Virus genome (UHGV): UHGV-0178594
DNA length: 64,000 bases
Direction: 5' to 3' (one strand)
From: a virus
The position numbers were made by a program, and so were the translations under genes. The notes below the pieces were generated by a model, which was not told the DNA's origin, searched no databases, and worked only from the letters and a program-made list of their open reading frames with translations. Position 1 is the stretch's first letter. Every line of letters begins with the position of its first letter. Shown here in pieces: positions 3,461-55,439 of the stretch.

Positions 3461-3820
3461 ATGAACATTAAACCTATCCGTACAGAACAAGATTATGAGG
3501 CCGCACTGCGTGAAGTCGAACCGATGTTCGATAACGAACCGGAAATGAATACTCCGGAAGGTGATTTCTTTGAGGTTATGAGTCTTCTCATTGAGGAGTA
3601 CGAGAAGAAACATTACCCAATTCAGCCACCATCACCTATTGAGGCCATTAAGTTCCGCATGGAACAGCAAGGGCTGACCGTGAAGGATCTGGAACCGGCT
3701 ATTGGTAAATCAAATCGTGTTTACGAGGTGCTAAATGGGACACGAAATTTGACGTTACCTATGATTCGTCGTTTACATTCCCAGTTTGGCATTCCTCTTG
3801 AAAGCCTGGTTGGTGTTTGA
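3461..3820 (+). CDS. HigA-like HTH regulator (E. coli K-12 HigA architecture), no cognate HigB upstream
   Basis: N-terminal domain plus C-terminal HTH (GTRNLTLPMIRRLHSQFGIPLESL) resembling K-12 HigA; start taken at internal ATG (MNIKPIRTEQ). Confidence 0.6.
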   Translation: MNIKPIRTEQDYEAALREVEPMFDNEPEMNTPEGDFFEVMSLLIEEYEKKHYPIQPPSPIEAIKFRMEQQGLTVKDLEPAIGKSNRVYEVLNGTRNLTLPMIRRLHSQFGIPLESLVGV

Positions 3821-3869
3821 GTTTGGCGGTCTGGAAGACCGCCTTCACCAAAAATAAAGATAAGAAGGT

Positions 3870-4619
3870 TTGAATTTTTATATGAGCAAAGATTCATCAT
3901 TAGAAAATAAAGATGAAAATGTCACAGTCAGGAACACAATAGAAGAAGCCATAAGAGACAAGTTATTTAATAAGTTGTTTGCATATGTTGTGGTTTCTTT
4001 TTTAGTCGTTAACTGGCAGGATATTATTATATTATTTAAATCAAAGTACGATATATATACAACATTGTCTATAGTATGGGTTGGTGAGAAATATCACTTT
4101 CCTTATGTTGGCCCCATCATTGTATCTCCGTTTGTGGCTCATTTTGTTATGCCATTTATATATGGAACCACTGCGTCAGTGGTAATGCCTTATATAACAA
4201 TGTATATATCAAAAGCAACAGGCAGGAACTATGCAAGAATTAGATACATTGACTATGAGTTTGATTTAGAAGAGAGGGCAAGAATAAAAGAGTTGCAGAT
4301 CAACTTGAAGCAAAAAGAGAGCAAGCTTTTAAGTCTAGAAAAGCAAACAGAAGATCAATATAAATTATTGTCTGCAATTGAAGAGAAGAAGAGAGAGACT
4401 GAGAGTGCCAGAGTGGCTCTGTATCACGGCATAAAAGTAATTGTCGATGTATATAAAGCAAAAAAGAAAAGAATTTCCACCCAAGAAGATTTTGCCGATT
4501 TATTAAAAGCAATTGAAGAAAGCGATTTTTATAAAGACACTGGATTGTGGGGTATTAATAAACTAATAGATGACGTAGAGAAAATATATGAGTCTCAATC
4601 GACAACAAAGGACAAGTAA
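3870..4619 (+). CDS. membrane protein with two TM helices and long C-terminal coiled coil
   Basis: AT-rich ORF; hydrophobic segments FAYVVVSFLVVNW and PIIVSPFVAHFVMPFIYG, then K/E-rich coiled coil; terminator at 4622-4648. Confidence 0.55.
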   Translation: MNFYMSKDSSLENKDENVTVRNTIEEAIRDKLFNKLFAYVVVSFLVVNWQDIIILFKSKYDIYTTLSIVWVGEKYHFPYVGPIIVSPFVAHFVMPFIYGTTASVVMPYITMYISKATGRNYARIRYIDYEFDLEERARIKELQINLKQKESKLLSLEKQTEDQYKLLSAIEEKKRETESARVALYHGIKVIVDVYKAKKKRISTQEDFADLLKAIEESDFYKDTGLWGINKLIDDVEKIYESQSTTKDK

Positions 4620-11404: not shown

Positions 11405-11438
11405 TGTGTTAGAAAATCAAAATTGATTTTCTAACACA
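11405..11438. promoter_or_regulatory. 34-bp perfect palindrome, bipartite operator candidate (GTTAGAA-N14-TTCTAAC)
   Basis: TGTGTTAGAAAATCAA-AA-TTGATTTTCTAACACA in divergent promoter region between Ref-like gene and rightward early operon. Confidence 0.6.
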
Positions 11439-13058: not shown

Positions 13059-13777
13059 GCGAAATTAATTACCAGGCACTGCGTGAGGCGGCGGAACGTG
13101 CAATTCCAGCAATGGAACGCCTGTTAATGTTGCCAGCTGATGATGATTTGTTAAGTGAACAGGAACTTAAAGATTACGGTGTGGATATTGATGCGCTCAA
13201 CGCCTTCAAATTTCTGGCCGGACCAGAAACCGTGCTGGCACTACTGGATGAACGGGAAAGAAACCAGCAATACATCAAATCTCGCGACCAGGAGAACGAG
13301 GATATTGCGCTAACGGTAGGGAAGCTGTTAATCGAAAACGGTCAGCTTGTTGCCGATACGCTACGCCACTTAGCTGATAACGAAATCGACTCTGATTATT
13401 TTGCTATCACCTCAACTAATGAGAACGGTACTGAAATTGATCATGAGATGTCTATTACCGATTACGCACTGCAAGCTGCCGGAACTGTAGACGAATTGGT
13501 TGCGGCGCTGGAAGCCGCAAAATCAAAACTCAACGAGCAGCGTGAATATTACGAGGGAGTAATCGCGGATGGAAGTAAGCGCATAGCAGAGTTAGAAAGT
13601 GGTTCTCAGGCACAAAAGTTAGTTGAAGCAATCATTGTTGCGATAGAAAACGAACAGGAACGTCTTTTTGATGAAGATTACCTAATGGATTCGAAAGAAT
13701 GCATTGACGTAATTCGTGAAGAAGTAAAGCGATGGAATGATTCCCGCGCCGCTGGCATTCGCATCAAAGGAGAGTGA
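13055..13777 (+). CDS. Ead/Ea22-like protein
   Basis: GTG start in conserved junction; N-terminus [14 protein letters not shown] shared with 19190 ORF. Confidence 0.55.
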
Positions 13778-13778
13778 G

Positions 13779-14102
13779 ATGACCACATCGCATTCTGCAA
13801 TCACCCAGGAAAAAGTATTTCGCTTGCTCGAACGTCTGGAGGCGCTCGCCACGGAGGAGGATATATCCCCGGAGATGCTGGTCGAGTGCAGCCGTGTGAT
13901 ATTGCGTCGCAAGAACGACATCGCGCGGCTGACATCTGGCGCACAATCCGTATCAGCCAGTCCAACGCTTTATTGCAGCTTCTGCAACAAATCCCAGCAC
14001 ACCGTTAAAAAGTTAATTGCCGGGGACAACGTTTTCATCTGCAACGAGTGCGTGAAAGATTGCAACAACATTATCCAGGAAGAGCAAAGGGAATCAGCAT
14101 GA
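13779..14102 (+). CDS. ClpX N-terminal zinc-binding-domain-like protein
   Basis: C-terminus [36 protein letters not shown] closely resembles ClpX ZBD ([20 protein letters not shown]...ICDECV). Confidence 0.6.
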
Positions 14103-14809
14103 AATTTTCCAAATTCTCGGAGTTGGTGAATCGTATTTTGTCCAACAACCACAGCCATCGTCGCGATATGGATGTAACGATCGTTGTTCATTCGCCTGGT
14201 CGCATCGGTTCAACACCATCAGTTGAGGTTCAGTCAATTCAGGTGGGTTTTGATTGGGATGCCGGGAAAGTGCTGATTTTCCCAGCACAGCCACTGACCA
14301 CGCTAACACCAGAACAGATTACTGATATTACGGATAGTGTGCGCAAAGGTCAGTCTTGGCACGCATATCAGGAATACAAGAAGCATAAAGAGCAGTTGGA
14401 AAAATTGTCGATTGAACTGGATGCTGCAAGACGGCGCATTACAGAACTGGAGAGCGAACGCGCGGTGCTGGCGGCGGAGAATGCGGAGCTGAAGTCTGTG
14501 CACCCTCAACCATTCGGAGCTGAGATGATGAAGGCTCTTGATGCGTATGAGAAGCATCAGGATGAAGTGCCAGAGACTGGAATGCTCAATGCATTTTTCA
14601 TCTTGCGCGACAGTATCCGTGTTGACACCCCAGCCACCGATGCTTTCCTGGCTGAAGTACGTGCGCAGGGCGTGGATATGGCTCGTAACGCGATGATTGA
14701 TTTTGTCGATGGTGAAGTTGGGCCAAACAAGAACGTTCCGGGGCTGATTAGAGGCGCAGAGATATGCGTAAGTATTGCTGAACAGCTTCGCAAAGGAGGC
14801 AGCCAGTGA
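14099..14809 (+). CDS. Ead/Ea22-like protein
   Basis: ATGA overlap with upstream stop; [13 protein letters not shown] and [11 protein letters not shown] modules. Confidence 0.55.
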
Positions 14810-25683: not shown

Positions 25684-26073
25684 ATGGGCTTCCCTTCTCC
25701 TGCGGCGGATTATGCAGAGAGCCGTATTTCTCTTGATCAGCAACTAATCAGACATCCTTCTGCGACCTACTTCATGCGGGCGGCAGACAGCCATCACCGT
25801 GAGGGAATATTGCAAGGTGCTTTGCTGGTGGTTGATTCCTCACTTACTCCGGTTGATGGTTCACTGCTTATATGCGCTATGGAGGGTGAATATCGCATAA
25901 AGAGATACAGGAAGTATCCGCGCCAGCACCTGGAGGATTTAAGCACCGGGAAGAAAGAGGCGTTACCAGTGGATGACGATGGATACACGGGCAGTAATGC
26001 TGTTTTTGGTGTGATCACTCATGTCATCAATGATGCCCGAAGTGGGGAATTTGATGATTGTCCGGTTATTTAA
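25684..26073 (+). CDS. UmuD'-like protein (P1 HumD-like, S24 peptidase fold)
   Basis: Strong similarity to UmuD core (GFPSPAADY...HPSATYF...VFGVITHV); 129 aa; LexA box upstream; no umuC adjacent. Confidence 0.7.
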   Translation: MGFPSPAADYAESRISLDQQLIRHPSATYFMRAADSHHREGILQGALLVVDSSLTPVDGSLLICAMEGEYRIKRYRKYPRQHLEDLSTGKKEALPVDDDGYTGSNAVFGVITHVINDARSGEFDDCPVI

Positions 26074-26145: not shown

Positions 26146-26367
26146 ATGCAATCCATTAACTTCCGTACCGCGCGCGGCAACCTTTCTGAAGTGCTCAACA
26201 ATGTTGAAGCCGGGGAAGAGGTTGAAATCACCCGCAGAGGCCGTGAGCCAGCAGTAATTGTCAGCAAGGCTACTTTCGAAGCCTACAAAAAAGCGGCGCT
26301 GGATGCTGAATTTGCATCCCTGTTTGACACCCTGGACTCCACCAACAAGGAACTGGTTAACCGATAA
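26146..26367 (+). CDS. phd: Phd antitoxin (prevent-host-death)
   Basis: [39 protein letters not shown] matches P1 Phd as I recall it. Confidence 0.85.
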
Positions 26368-26747
26368 TGAGGCATATATCACCGGAAGAACTTATTGCGC
26401 TTCATGATGCGAATATAAACCGCTACGGCGGCCTGCCGGGAATGTCAGATCCGGGTAGGGCAGAGGCCATTATCGGGAGAGTTCAGGCAAGAGTTGCCTA
26501 CGAAGAGATCACCGACCTTTTCGAAGTCTCCGCAACCTACCTGGTGGCTACAGCGAGAGGGCATATATTCAATGATGCCAATAAGCGTACCGCGCTAAAC
26601 AGTGCGCTGCTATTTCTACGCCGTAACGGTATACAGGTATATGATTCTCCCGTGCTGGTGGAACTTGCGGTGGGGGCTGCAACTGGTGAAATCCCCGTAT
26701 CTTCAGTAGCGGAAAAACTACGTGAACTATATGGTTCCAATATTTGA
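26367..26747 (+). CDS. doc: Doc toxin (death-on-curing, Fic fold)
   Basis: [17 protein letters not shown]...[11 protein letters not shown]; ATGA-coupled to phd. Confidence 0.85.
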
Positions 26748-39290: not shown

Positions 39291-39323
39291 TATGTTAGAA
39301 AAACAATTTTAATTTTCTAACAC
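39291..39323. promoter_or_regulatory. palindromic operator candidate (GTTAGAA-N14-TTCTAAC)
   Basis: ATGTTAGAAAAACAATTTTAATTTTCTAACACA, 4 bp from stop of 39325 ORF. Confidence 0.5.
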
Positions 39324-52741: not shown

Positions 52742-53740
52742 TCACATCCTCTTAGACACAAAGATCAGCGGAGTCACCGTCTTGTTCTCTTTCACCGGTA
52801 TTTCTTGTTGTTTATTGGCTGATATTGGCAGACCATAAGTGGCATTAGCCCCCAGGGATTCAAGCATCGCCGCGACAATGCGTGCATCATCCTCTGACTG
52901 CATACGGCAGAGCGCCCGGCGCTGTTCTGCGCTGATAAAAACAGGCATTTCCTGGATAGCATCACGCAAAATACGGCGGCATTTCTTCGCGTTCTCCCCC
53001 TGGCTTTCCATCATCGCGGCCTGGTCGCGTAGTTTGTCGCGAAGCTGCATATTTTCCACTTCAAGATGTATCAGTTCCGACTCCAGAACTTCACGTTGTG
53101 CTGATTCGAATATGGCTTGCTGACTCTTCATTGCTGAAAAGTGGTGAACCAGATCCGTAGCAGCATTATCGGTAAAACCTTGTTCGATAAGTGCCGCATG
53201 AATCGCCGCGTCGCGTTCTTCTGCTGATTCAAGCATCAGGCTTTTCTTGTCGAGGCTGATATAGTTAGGCACAGTTACGTAATCAAAACCGTGAAAAGAC
53301 TTTACCAGGGATACAGAGTAATCTGGACCAGATGTAGCCCATGACCAACCACCTGCGCAAGAATTAATCATACCCTGAACAATACGTCCGGTGTCCGTAT
53401 CCAGTATTTCCTGTGTATGGGTAACAATGCCGTTGTCGTCAATTGAAATGTCGATAGTCCTGTTTGACGGCACGTTCTCCAATACAACAGGCTTCCCATC
53501 TACCATCACAACAGAGACTTCCGGCAAGTCCAGGCTTTTCGTTTTGTTATAGTGCATCGCCCGGCGACCATGACCATAATAACCATACATCTCACCCAGT
53601 GCGATACGCTCTTTTGTTTCTGGCGAGTTGAATGTGTCTCGTACCGACTGGATAACGTAATTGCGATTGTTCTGAGGTGTGTGTTTGCGGATTTTCTCTA
53701 CCAGGGAGAAGCGATCCGTAACGGTATTCAGTGATTGCAT
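52742..53740 (-). CDS. hypothetical virion-associated protein (possible prohead protease)
   Basis: 332-aa ORF directly downstream of and coupled to 561-aa portal-like ORF; assignment is positional. Confidence 0.35.
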   Translation of the reverse strand: MQSLNTVTDRFSLVEKIRKHTPQNNRNYVIQSVRDTFNSPETKERIALGEMYGYYGHGRRAMHYNKTKSLDLPEVSVVMVDGKPVVLENVPSNRTIDISIDDNGIVTHTQEILDTDTGRIVQGMINSCAGGWSWATSGPDYSVSLVKSFHGFDYVTVPNYISLDKKSLMLESAEERDAAIHAALIEQGFTDNAATDLVHHFSAMKSQQAIFESAQREVLESELIHLEVENMQLRDKLRDQAAMMESQGENAKKCRRILRDAIQEMPVFISAEQRRALCRMQSEDDARIVAAMLESLGANATYGLPISANKQQEIPVKENKTVTPLIFVSKRM

Positions 53741-53753
53741 TATTTCCCTCCGG

Positions 53754-55439
53754 TTAATTATTGCTCATCACAAATTTTGCAAAGTTGATTAATTGTTCTT
53801 GCGTCCAGTTTTCCGGATCGTCACCGGACGACAACGGCGCGGATTCGTACATACCATGCTCGTTGTTTTGCTCTGATTCATTCGCCTTAAACTCTTGGAT
53901 CATTACGTTGAGAGTGTCATCGTCGATACGAAGCTGTTCGGTGAACAGATAACGCATAAACGCGTCGCTACCCGCCAGTTTCGGGTTGTTCTGGATCTGG
54001 TCCATTATTTGCGAGATGACAGCTACGAAGTTGGCGCGCGCATCCAGCTCTCGGTTTTCCTCTTCCTGGATAGCTGTGTTCATTGAGTTGAATTGCACGT
54101 CATAAGGACGGTTTTTTTCGGTGTAAACCTTCCCGTATTTATAAGCGAGGTGAATGTCATGAAGCCGATAAATAGTCCGCTGGGCGGCCTGTCTGATCCA
54201 GTTCGCGCGTAAGGCGGCCTGGATAGCTGTTTGCTGCCAACCGCCTTCTCCAAGTCCACCACTCATCTGATCAGCCCAGCCAAGCATTGTTGCGTCAATA
54301 CCGAGGCTTGCCGCGAGCTGTCGGAGATGAAACATAACGTCTTCGATACCACTGATATCTGCGGGTATAGATTGCGTATCAATGGTGATCCCGTTCTTCC
54401 CATCCCCCATGACGGGTATCAGATGGTTAAGTACAGATGGGAGAGCATTAGAATTAATCGACCGTTGCGCTACGAGGTCGCTATGACGCTTCAGTGCCTG
54501 GCTGACCCCGCGCGTATAATTCGCCGCGTTTACCGGATCTATCGTGTTCGTTGTGAGTGCAATCAGGCGATCAATTTTTGCAGCGTTGTTTCGCGTTGCT
54601 TTCAGCGCAGCAAGCGCGGCACATAAATTCAGGTAGGGTTCATAACTGTATTCAAGAAACGACGTACCGTAGTTCTGCGTCTCCATTAACGGCTTGTCCT
54701 GCTGTTCACTAAGCAAGGAATAGCCTTTAGTGCCGTAAGTTACTGGCATTACTTTATGCTGAGGCGTCCAGTACGGGTTTTTCATGGAAACCAGATTCCA
54801 CGGTTCGGTTATAACTCTGCGCAAAGTATGCGTATCCAGAATATAATCACCGCTGAATCCGACAAGTTGGCTACCGCGATAAAACTCCTGAACGAAATGA
54901 GGGAGCGTGTAATAGCTCGACTCAATTCCAGTTATCCCCTTCCCTTGCTCTGCATATGGACGAATATAAGACACACCGAAAATAGCCATGATCATGGCCC
55001 ACGATGGCAGGCCATCATTAATCATTGAGCTTAAATCAGCGGTCAATTCCTCACATCGACTTACAGCCTCCTTATCCGCCCCATTTTTCGGAGAGAGAAT
55101 AAATGCGAGGCCTGTTTTTTTTGATGGAGCCAGAGAATGCGCAATGTGAATGTTTAATGCTGTGGAGATAGTCGGACTTTTCGCCATCGTCTCCAGTATG
55201 TTGTATTTTTGCAGGCGGTCACTCGGTAATTCTGCCGATATAGATACAGTATCCGCCGCGCTTGTCATGCCATCGCTATTGCTCCCCAGGATGCCAGGAC
55301 GCAAGGCGGACAGGCCAGAACGAGCAACGACGCTATGCCCGCTCGCAAATACGACCGGATCGGCAGGCGTAACATCACCACCGCTGAAGGCTTTCTTCAA
55401 TGCCGACAGAAAGCCCTTGTTTTTGTCTTTCGTTGCCAT
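53754..55439 (-). CDS. hypothetical virion protein (possible portal)
   Basis: 561-aa ORF downstream of dar-like operon; size consistent with portal; no motif confirmed. Confidence 0.35.
   Translation of the reverse strand: MATKDKNKGFLSALKKAFSGGDVTPADPVVFASGHSVVARSGLSALRPGILGSNSDGMTSAADTVSISAELPSDRLQKYNILETMAKSPTISTALNIHIAHSLAPSKKTGLAFILSPKNGADKEAVSRCEELTADLSSMINDGLPSWAMIMAIFGVSYIRPYAEQGKGITGIESSYYTLPHFVQEFYRGSQLVGFSGDYILDTHTLRRVITEPWNLVSMKNPYWTPQHKVMPVTYGTKGYSLLSEQQDKPLMETQNYGTSFLEYSYEPYLNLCAALAALKATRNNAAKIDRLIALTTNTIDPVNAANYTRGVSQALKRHSDLVAQRSINSNALPSVLNHLIPVMGDGKNGITIDTQSIPADISGIEDVMFHLRQLAASLGIDATMLGWADQMSGGLGEGGWQQTAIQAALRANWIRQAAQRTIYRLHDIHLAYKYGKVYTEKNRPYDVQFNSMNTAIQEEENRELDARANFVAVISQIMDQIQNNPKLAGSDAFMRYLFTEQLRIDDDTLNVMIQEFKANESEQNNEHGMYESAPLSSGDDPENWTQEQLINFAKFVMSNN

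Follow-up and report, generated by a model that had tools for sequence, protein, structure and literature searches.

Temperate phages of E. coli encode a 107-residue protein in which a ClpX-type zinc-binding domain (ZBD) is preceded by a predicted helical hairpin unrelated to ClpX and followed by no AAA+ module; the protein carries a ClpX domain but is not a ClpX. We analysed one such gene in a 64,000-nucleotide stretch of the virus genome UHGV-0178594 (the window). Two pocket residues at which ligands dock on the host ClpX domain are retained, and an isolated ClpX ZBD inhibits adaptor-dependent ClpXP degradation in trans in vitro, which suggests that the phage protein could act as a decoy for adaptors and substrates of the host protease.

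The open reading frame, read directly from the + strand, starts at ATG 13779 and stops at TGA 14100–14102. It therefore comprises 107 codons plus the stop, and an earlier count of 108 residues was wrong. An alternative in-frame ATG at 13737 would extend the product to 121 residues and is used by some database entries; we prefer 13779 because the RefSeq record, the position of the Shine–Dalgarno sequence and the family alignment agree on it. The gene is closely fitted between its neighbours: the stop codon of an upstream Ead/Ea22-like gene (13775–13777) lies one base ahead of the ATG, and the 3′ neighbour begins at 14099 in an ATGA overlap. The AF2 model of the 107-residue protein has a mean pLDDT of 79 and, together with conservation, divides it into two domains and a linker (Table 1).

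Table 1. Positions in the window of the ZBD gene, its parts and related features of the same element
Feature	Position	Strand	Remarks
Inverted repeat TGTGTTAGAAAATCAA-AA-TTGATTTTCTAACACA, perfect, 16+16 nt	11405..11438		Between ref (-) and the operon's first gene (+)
Further TGTTAGAAAATYAA sites	7388, 10776, 16342, 29675, 31071, 35513, 39159, 40554, 51512, 52715		
CDS, 107-aa stand-alone ClpX-type zinc-finger protein	13779..14102	+	Stop codon included; ORF, identical RefSeq CDS, PHROG 6797
Shine–Dalgarno AGGAG	13768..13772	+	6 nt 5′ of ATG 13779, read directly
N-terminal domain, residues 1–53	13779..13937	+	Predicted helical hairpin; AF2, invariant columns, dN/dS 0.30
Flexible linker, residues 54–62	13938..13964	+	Lowest-pLDDT block (~59), indels in relatives
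ClpX-type ZBD, residues 63–107	13965..14099	+	PF06689, PDB matches, AF2 superposition
Zinc-ligand codons	C66 13974–13976, C69 13983–13985, C88 14040–14042, C91 14049–14051	+	
Downstream gene, 236 aa	14099..14809	+	ATGA overlap; N-terminal PHROG 6026 module and Ea22-like mosaic C-terminus
HumD, UmuD′-like	25684–26073		Same element
Phd, P1-type	26146–26367		Same element
Doc	26367–26747		Same element

The C-terminal domain resembles the N-terminal ZBD of ClpX in Pfam assignment, cysteine spacing, overall identity and docking residues. The Pfam family zf-C4_ClpX (PF06689) matches residues 65–101 over model positions 2–39 of 39 with 64.3 bits, above the gathering threshold (cut-off 27; E = 9.1e-18), and among PDB sequences the protein matches two E. 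coli ClpX ZBD entries best, 1ovx and 2ds5 (E ~1e-15). BLASTP aligned residues 64–107 with E. coli ClpX 13–56 at 30 of 44 identical positions (68%). C66, C69, C88 and C91 reproduce the ClpX spacing C-x2-C-x18-C-x2-C and are invariant in family alignments of 16 and 20 homologues, as is C95, the counterpart of ClpX C43. AF2 places the domain at residues 63–106 with a pLDDT of 83–87, and the model fits the ClpX treble clef of two β-hairpins and a C-terminal helix; the modelled domain superposes on the ZBD and ZBD–XB structures 2ds5, 2ds6, 2ds7, 2ds8 and 1ovx with an rmsd of 1.5–2.1 Å (probability 1.00). These results bear out the first-pass annotation, which had placed a ClpX-type ZBD with all four cysteines at the C-terminal end of the protein. 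That reading had also supposed the AAA+ module to be missing, and it is: the sequence stops at residue 107 and contains no AAA domain recognised by Pfam, and the NCBIfam models for full ClpX (TIGR00382 and NF003745), matched only at positions 5–50, give 47.5 and 43.6 bits where 359 and 371 are required.

We noted that two ligand-pocket residues of ClpX are conserved in this domain. In ClpX, F16 and I46 form a hydrophobic pocket that is the common site for λ-O, SspB, RssB and trigger factor (PMC7804408). F16 corresponds to F68 here, which is invariant in the family, and I46 corresponds to I98, which is I, V, L or A in relatives and hydrophobic in most members. Substitutions relative to ClpX cluster on the C-terminal helix, where ClpX positions 41, 42, 45 and 48 are variable and the window allele carries D41K, L42D, D45N and R48Q. 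ClpX positions 31–32 also vary in the family. At the L42 position, which lies a single helical turn away from I46, the window allele has Asp and other alleles have V, A or L; the commonest family allele has Cys at the Y13 position. The P88-type ZBD is closer still to ClpX in its core and is near-identical to it on the C-terminal helix.

The N-terminal domain is private to this family. AF2 predicts residues 10–52 to form a helical hairpin (helices 10–26 and 31–52, pLDDT 84–91), and the invariant residues of the domain are mostly charged (E11, K12, E18, R19, E21, E26, E27, E36, R43, R44 and D47); they are likely to be surface-exposed, which suggests a specific interaction surface. A HMMER search of 1.84 billion representative proteins with residues 1–59 found the domain only in the ZBD-protein family, split into D6-like and P88-like subfamilies; among the matches the ZBD always comes next or the protein is truncated. 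A match in a 1,176-residue repeat protein was set aside as low-complexity. The domain alone has no Pfam family above noise and no PDB relative. Residues 42–45 of the domain form an invariant LRRK stretch with a superficial likeness to LRVVK, the XB motif that binds the ZBD, and to the LKxh consensus given in PMC7226468; as the stretch falls within a predicted helix, we placed no weight on the likeness.

Selection has acted on both domains. We compared 37 coding sequences (those of the window, D6, P88 and 34 IMG/VR loci), which represent 24 distinct alleles; pooled Nei–Gojobori dN/dS was 0.30 in the N-domain, 0.50 in the ZBD and ~1–1.4 in the linker. Selection thus preserves both domains, the N-domain the more strongly of the two, and leaves the linker unconstrained. 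The earlier reading had overlooked the N-domain, which is more constrained than the ZBD and must have a part in the function. Recombination has also used the linker as its joint: P0022 and P0024 are N-domain-swapped variants whose ZBD follows other Ea22-like coiled-coil N-termini. In P0001 and P0010 the N-terminus is lengthened by a module of a neighbour.

Using blastn with 11-nt words, we found a family member in 195 of 5,426 complete E. coli genomes (~3.6%), at 105 plasmid and 100 chromosomal places. The search returned family members only and never matched clpX itself in these genomes, so that recent capture from host clpX can be rejected; capture of the ZBD is instead old, because no nucleotide similarity to the host gene is detectable. 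Across 50,697 phage records the family is confined to a few Escherichia phages, namely D6, CMS-2020a, PhiR41_1, P88 and PhiR44_2. Chromosomal copies belong to P88-type P2-like prophages, one of which is carried by E. coli UTI89, and lie 3′ of the replication endonuclease and ParM/partition genes and 5′ of the portal gene. Two unrelated kinds of temperate phage keep the family, in every case in accessory regions on the early strand. At two IMG/VR loci (L035 4001–4849 and L038 3965–4822) a frameshift after the third cysteine removes the fourth and fuses the ZBD to the downstream ORF, the tail being read in the frame of the window's 14048–14809 ORF. ParM-like and partition genes, which precede the accessory block with the ZBD gene in P88-type prophages such as the P88 and UTI89 loci (L002 and L043), are unusual for an integrated P2-like phage. 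At a further locus of this type (L022) a 66-residue ORF with a signal-peptide-like N-terminus (3789–3989) precedes the ZBD gene.

The sequence family is already catalogued, and its novelty lies only in its possible function. An identical protein in NCBI bears the RefSeq name ‘ClpX C4-type zinc finger protein’, and PHROG 6797 (‘unknown function’) aligns residues 1–106 with profile positions 1–106 of 107 (E = 5.4e-56). Many copies in GenBank/RefSeq, where the homologues include D6 YP_009914770.1 and P88 YP_009113062.1, are named ‘carboxylate--amine ligase’, which appears to be a propagated misannotation, as domain evidence for the name is absent. A full-text search of the published literature found no study of a phage-encoded stand-alone ZBD or of a ClpX-directed phage inhibitor. 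No defence-system model of PADLOC-DB 2.0 matched the ZBD protein, the products of the two genes before it and of the one after it, or the downstream gene in P88.

The window derives from a D6-like, P1-related phage-plasmid, the closest match of which is a 93-kb E. coli plasmid that carries ref, icd/ant, repL, darA, pacA, phd/doc and humD. The ZBD gene is the fifth or sixth in a tightly packed + strand accessory operon divergent from ref, in which a small ORF, DUF4406, a DNA-binding protein, two Ea22-like proteins, the ZBD protein, an Ea22-like mosaic and DUF4752 follow one another, with a metallophosphoesterase further along. A near-identical plasmid, NZ_JBYRJZ010000003.1 (L004; record 53317–53892 and 54345–55277), is annotated with a Thoeris anti-defence Tad2-family protein, a four-tRNA cluster (Ile, Ser, Thr and Asn), DarA/DarB-like antirestriction genes and a HicAB module.

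A repeated motif points to how the operon may be controlled. In the window the 14-nt half-site TGTTAGAAAATYAA is present 14 times where 0.77 would be expected, as near-perfect palindromic pairs at 11405–11438 and 39293–39322 and at ten further sites. Most copies look intergenic and some lie close to ref; others, by approximate mapping onto an annotated relative, lie near icd/ant-like, repL-like and recombinase genes. By analogy with P1 C1, the palindrome ahead of the operon is probably its repressor operator, and the motif probably represents the C1-type operator set of the element. The P1 C1 operator consensus itself, ATTGCTCTAATAAATTT, has no match in the window with up to three mismatches allowed, and a σ70 promoter scan of the window gave nothing useful on the + strand. 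The gene had been assigned to an early operon, and tight one-strand packing and the operator-like palindrome at the operon start partly support this. Given the operator reading, ‘early, derepressed on induction’ would be a reasonable description.

The gene immediately downstream begins with a PHROG 6026 module of ~100 residues that is 88–100% identical across loci; its Ea22-like coiled-coil C-terminal part ranges from 33% to 100% identity. In 33 of 41 sources (40 loci and the window) the module comes directly after the ZBD gene. It is also found in at least 261 protein clusters from Escherichia, Salmonella and Klebsiella, mostly in prophages that do not carry the ZBD gene, and it is missing from D6, P88 and three other loci. 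We therefore rejected the downstream gene as an obligate partner and interpret the association as linkage within a mosaic block. The AF2 model of the module has a pLDDT of 44 and is unusable for fold.

Retention of F16 as F68 and of I46 as I98 makes a ligand decoy the most economical model of function, and we favour it tentatively, at somewhat less than an even chance: an accessory protein of two domains, an orphan hairpin flexibly tethered to a working copy of the ClpX docking domain, would let temperate E. coli phages damp adaptor-dependent ClpXP activity. Once the operon is derepressed, the free phage ZBD would bind the ligands for which the ZBD of host ClpX is the usual docking site. Candidate ligands are adaptor tails and auxiliary substrate tags, such as those of SspB, RssB, UmuD and λ-O- or DksA-type substrates. 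Their capture would selectively damp the adaptor- or tether-dependent branch of ClpXP and leave pore-recognised ssrA-type degradation largely intact, and the conserved N-domain may supply a second binding specificity or a means of oligomerisation.

There is an in vitro counterpart to this proposal. The isolated E. coli ZBD supplied in trans competitively inhibits RssB-mediated degradation of σS by ClpXP (PMC7226468). Such a fragment is, like the phage protein, a free ZBD with no motor attached, and its competitive inhibition is the activity proposed here; it is an engineered fragment, whereas the phage protein is the product of a natural, selected gene and has an extra domain. Wojtyra et al. 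2003 are also said to have used the isolated ClpX ZBD in trans in vitro. Degradation of λ-O needs the ClpX ZBD (PMC7804408), and the ClpX N-domain tethers substrates such as DksA and is needed for DksA degradation (PMC12723719). Competition for adaptors and substrates, which the first-pass annotation had put forward, is thus mechanistically grounded, because F68 and I98 are kept and a free ZBD in trans inhibits σS degradation.

The element itself offers candidate beneficiaries of the proposed decoy. Phd and UmuD′ are classical ClpXP substrates. As Phd and a UmuD′-like protein, HumD, are encoded on the same element, their protection during derepression would be an attractive, if conjectural, target, and P88-type prophages need not share these genes. 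Binding of ClpX ligands by the phage ZBD, the inhibitory outcome and the biological target are plausible steps that we infer.

Several observations count against the decoy. A pure decoy would not need a strongly conserved N-domain. The surface of the ZBD varies (dN/dS 0.5, L42 to Asp, Y13 to Cys), so that its ligand specificity may have drifted from the ligands of ClpX. The gene is dispensable, as P1 and most phage-plasmids are without it and two loci are frameshifted. Furthermore, the ClpXP-dependent triggers of anti-phage toxin–antitoxin systems described so far involve ssrA-like C-terminal degrons and do not need the ZBD (bioRxiv 10.1101/2024.02.24.581848).

The same variability of the ZBD surface is open to an explanation that leaves ClpX aside. 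The domain may be a long-captured zinc ribbon that serves mosaic Ea22-region proteins as a generic protein- or nucleic-acid-binding module and has no effect on ClpXP, for example within a regulator of lysis–lysogeny or of host cell physiology. Consistent with this, nucleotide similarity to host clpX is undetectable by blastn, the ZBD has been shuffled onto other coiled-coil N-termini in P0022 and P0024, and the neighbours are Ea22-like proteins of unknown function. PF06689 also occurs in other architectures, namely small metagenomic proteins (P0025–P0039) and cyanobacterial sigma factors (PMC11119718). However, identity to the host ClpX ZBD of at least 68% far exceeds what keeping the fold would need, F16 and most of the pocket are retained, and P88-type members have preserved the C-terminal helix of ClpX almost unchanged. 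We consider a ClpX-independent role somewhat unlikely.

A direct encounter with ClpX is a further alternative. The phage ZBD could pair with a ZBD of ClpX, whose N-domain dimerises constitutively, and so place the hairpin on the ClpX ring, where it would either block docking as a poison subunit or, as an adaptor, recruit a new client to be unfolded or degraded. The ClpX ZBD is a stable dimer (PMC7804408), and identity to the host domain is high and includes most core and helix hydrophobics (V92, I98, I99, I80, I87 and V85). A conserved binding-type N-domain joined by a flexible linker to a ZBD mirrors the design of an adaptor, and the many invariant charged residues on the N-domain surface suggest a specific partner. 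Against such pairing, the Asp at the ClpX L42 position of the window allele may disfavour mixed dimers, and ClpX ZBD dimers form within the hexamer at high local concentration, so that invasion by a free domain may be inefficient. On these grounds we judge heterodimerisation unlikely. That the gene is a functionless remnant of a captured clpX 5′ end is highly improbable: it is an accessory gene with two frameshifted loci, but dN/dS is well below 1 in both domains and about 1 in the linker, the two-domain architecture has been kept in two phage lineages, the Shine–Dalgarno sequence is good and the operon packing tight, and the gene is present in 195 of 5,426 complete E. coli genomes.

ClpXP controls σS, SOS mutagenesis proteins, antitoxins including Phd, and phage replication proteins. 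It is conceivable, though doubtful, that temperate E. coli phages have domesticated the ClpX docking domain and fused it to a private targeting domain, yielding a trans-acting module that rewires ClpXP specificity on derepression, whether as a decoy or as an adaptor that heterodimerises through its ZBD. This would then be the first case in nature in which a virus controls an AAA+ protease through a copy of the recognition domain of that protease, and it would give mobile elements a new means of tuning proteolysis in the host; the module might serve to shield proteins of the phage-plasmid, Phd or HumD for instance, or to increase σS. The protein would then provide a ready-made selective inhibitor of adaptor-dependent ClpXP activity, and its presence in UTI89 and in ~3.6% of complete E. 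coli genomes would give a genetic handle on what makes ClpX matter to phage-plasmids and P2-like prophages. If not, it is no more than a small, uncharacterised accessory protein whose domain is well annotated.

Other proteins achieve comparable ends by different means. T4 PinA and T7 Gp4.5 act on Lon, and λ CIII acts on FtsH. These are likewise accessory proteins with which phages modulate an AAA+ protease of the host, but they address other proteases with unrelated sequences and mechanisms, and to our knowledge none of them duplicates a domain of the protease it acts on. IraD, IraM and IraP are small proteins that block one adaptor-dependent branch of ClpXP while leaving the protease uninhibited (PMC7226468, PMC6546054); they have no sequence relation to the phage protein and bind RssB through folds of their own rather than by imitating the ClpX docking domain. 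Homology to PinA, CIII or IraD/IraM/IraP was rejected, as Pfam finds PF06689 alone in the whole phage protein.

Stand-alone ZBDs seem to recur in phages. We found other ZBD-only mini-proteins in PHROG 12435, PHROG 5259, Pseudomonas phage PP9W2 (65 residues) and Caulobacter phage Cr30. Like the protein described here, these are phage-encoded and have a ClpX-type ZBD with no AAA+ module, independently carried; they differ in lacking the N-terminal hairpin of PHROG 6797, and they too are uncharacterised. In Cr30 (L041), the ORF of ~70 codons with the ClpX-type ZBD (1486–1725) runs across two CDSs annotated as ‘hypothetical’, so that the record does not label it as a stand-alone ZBD.
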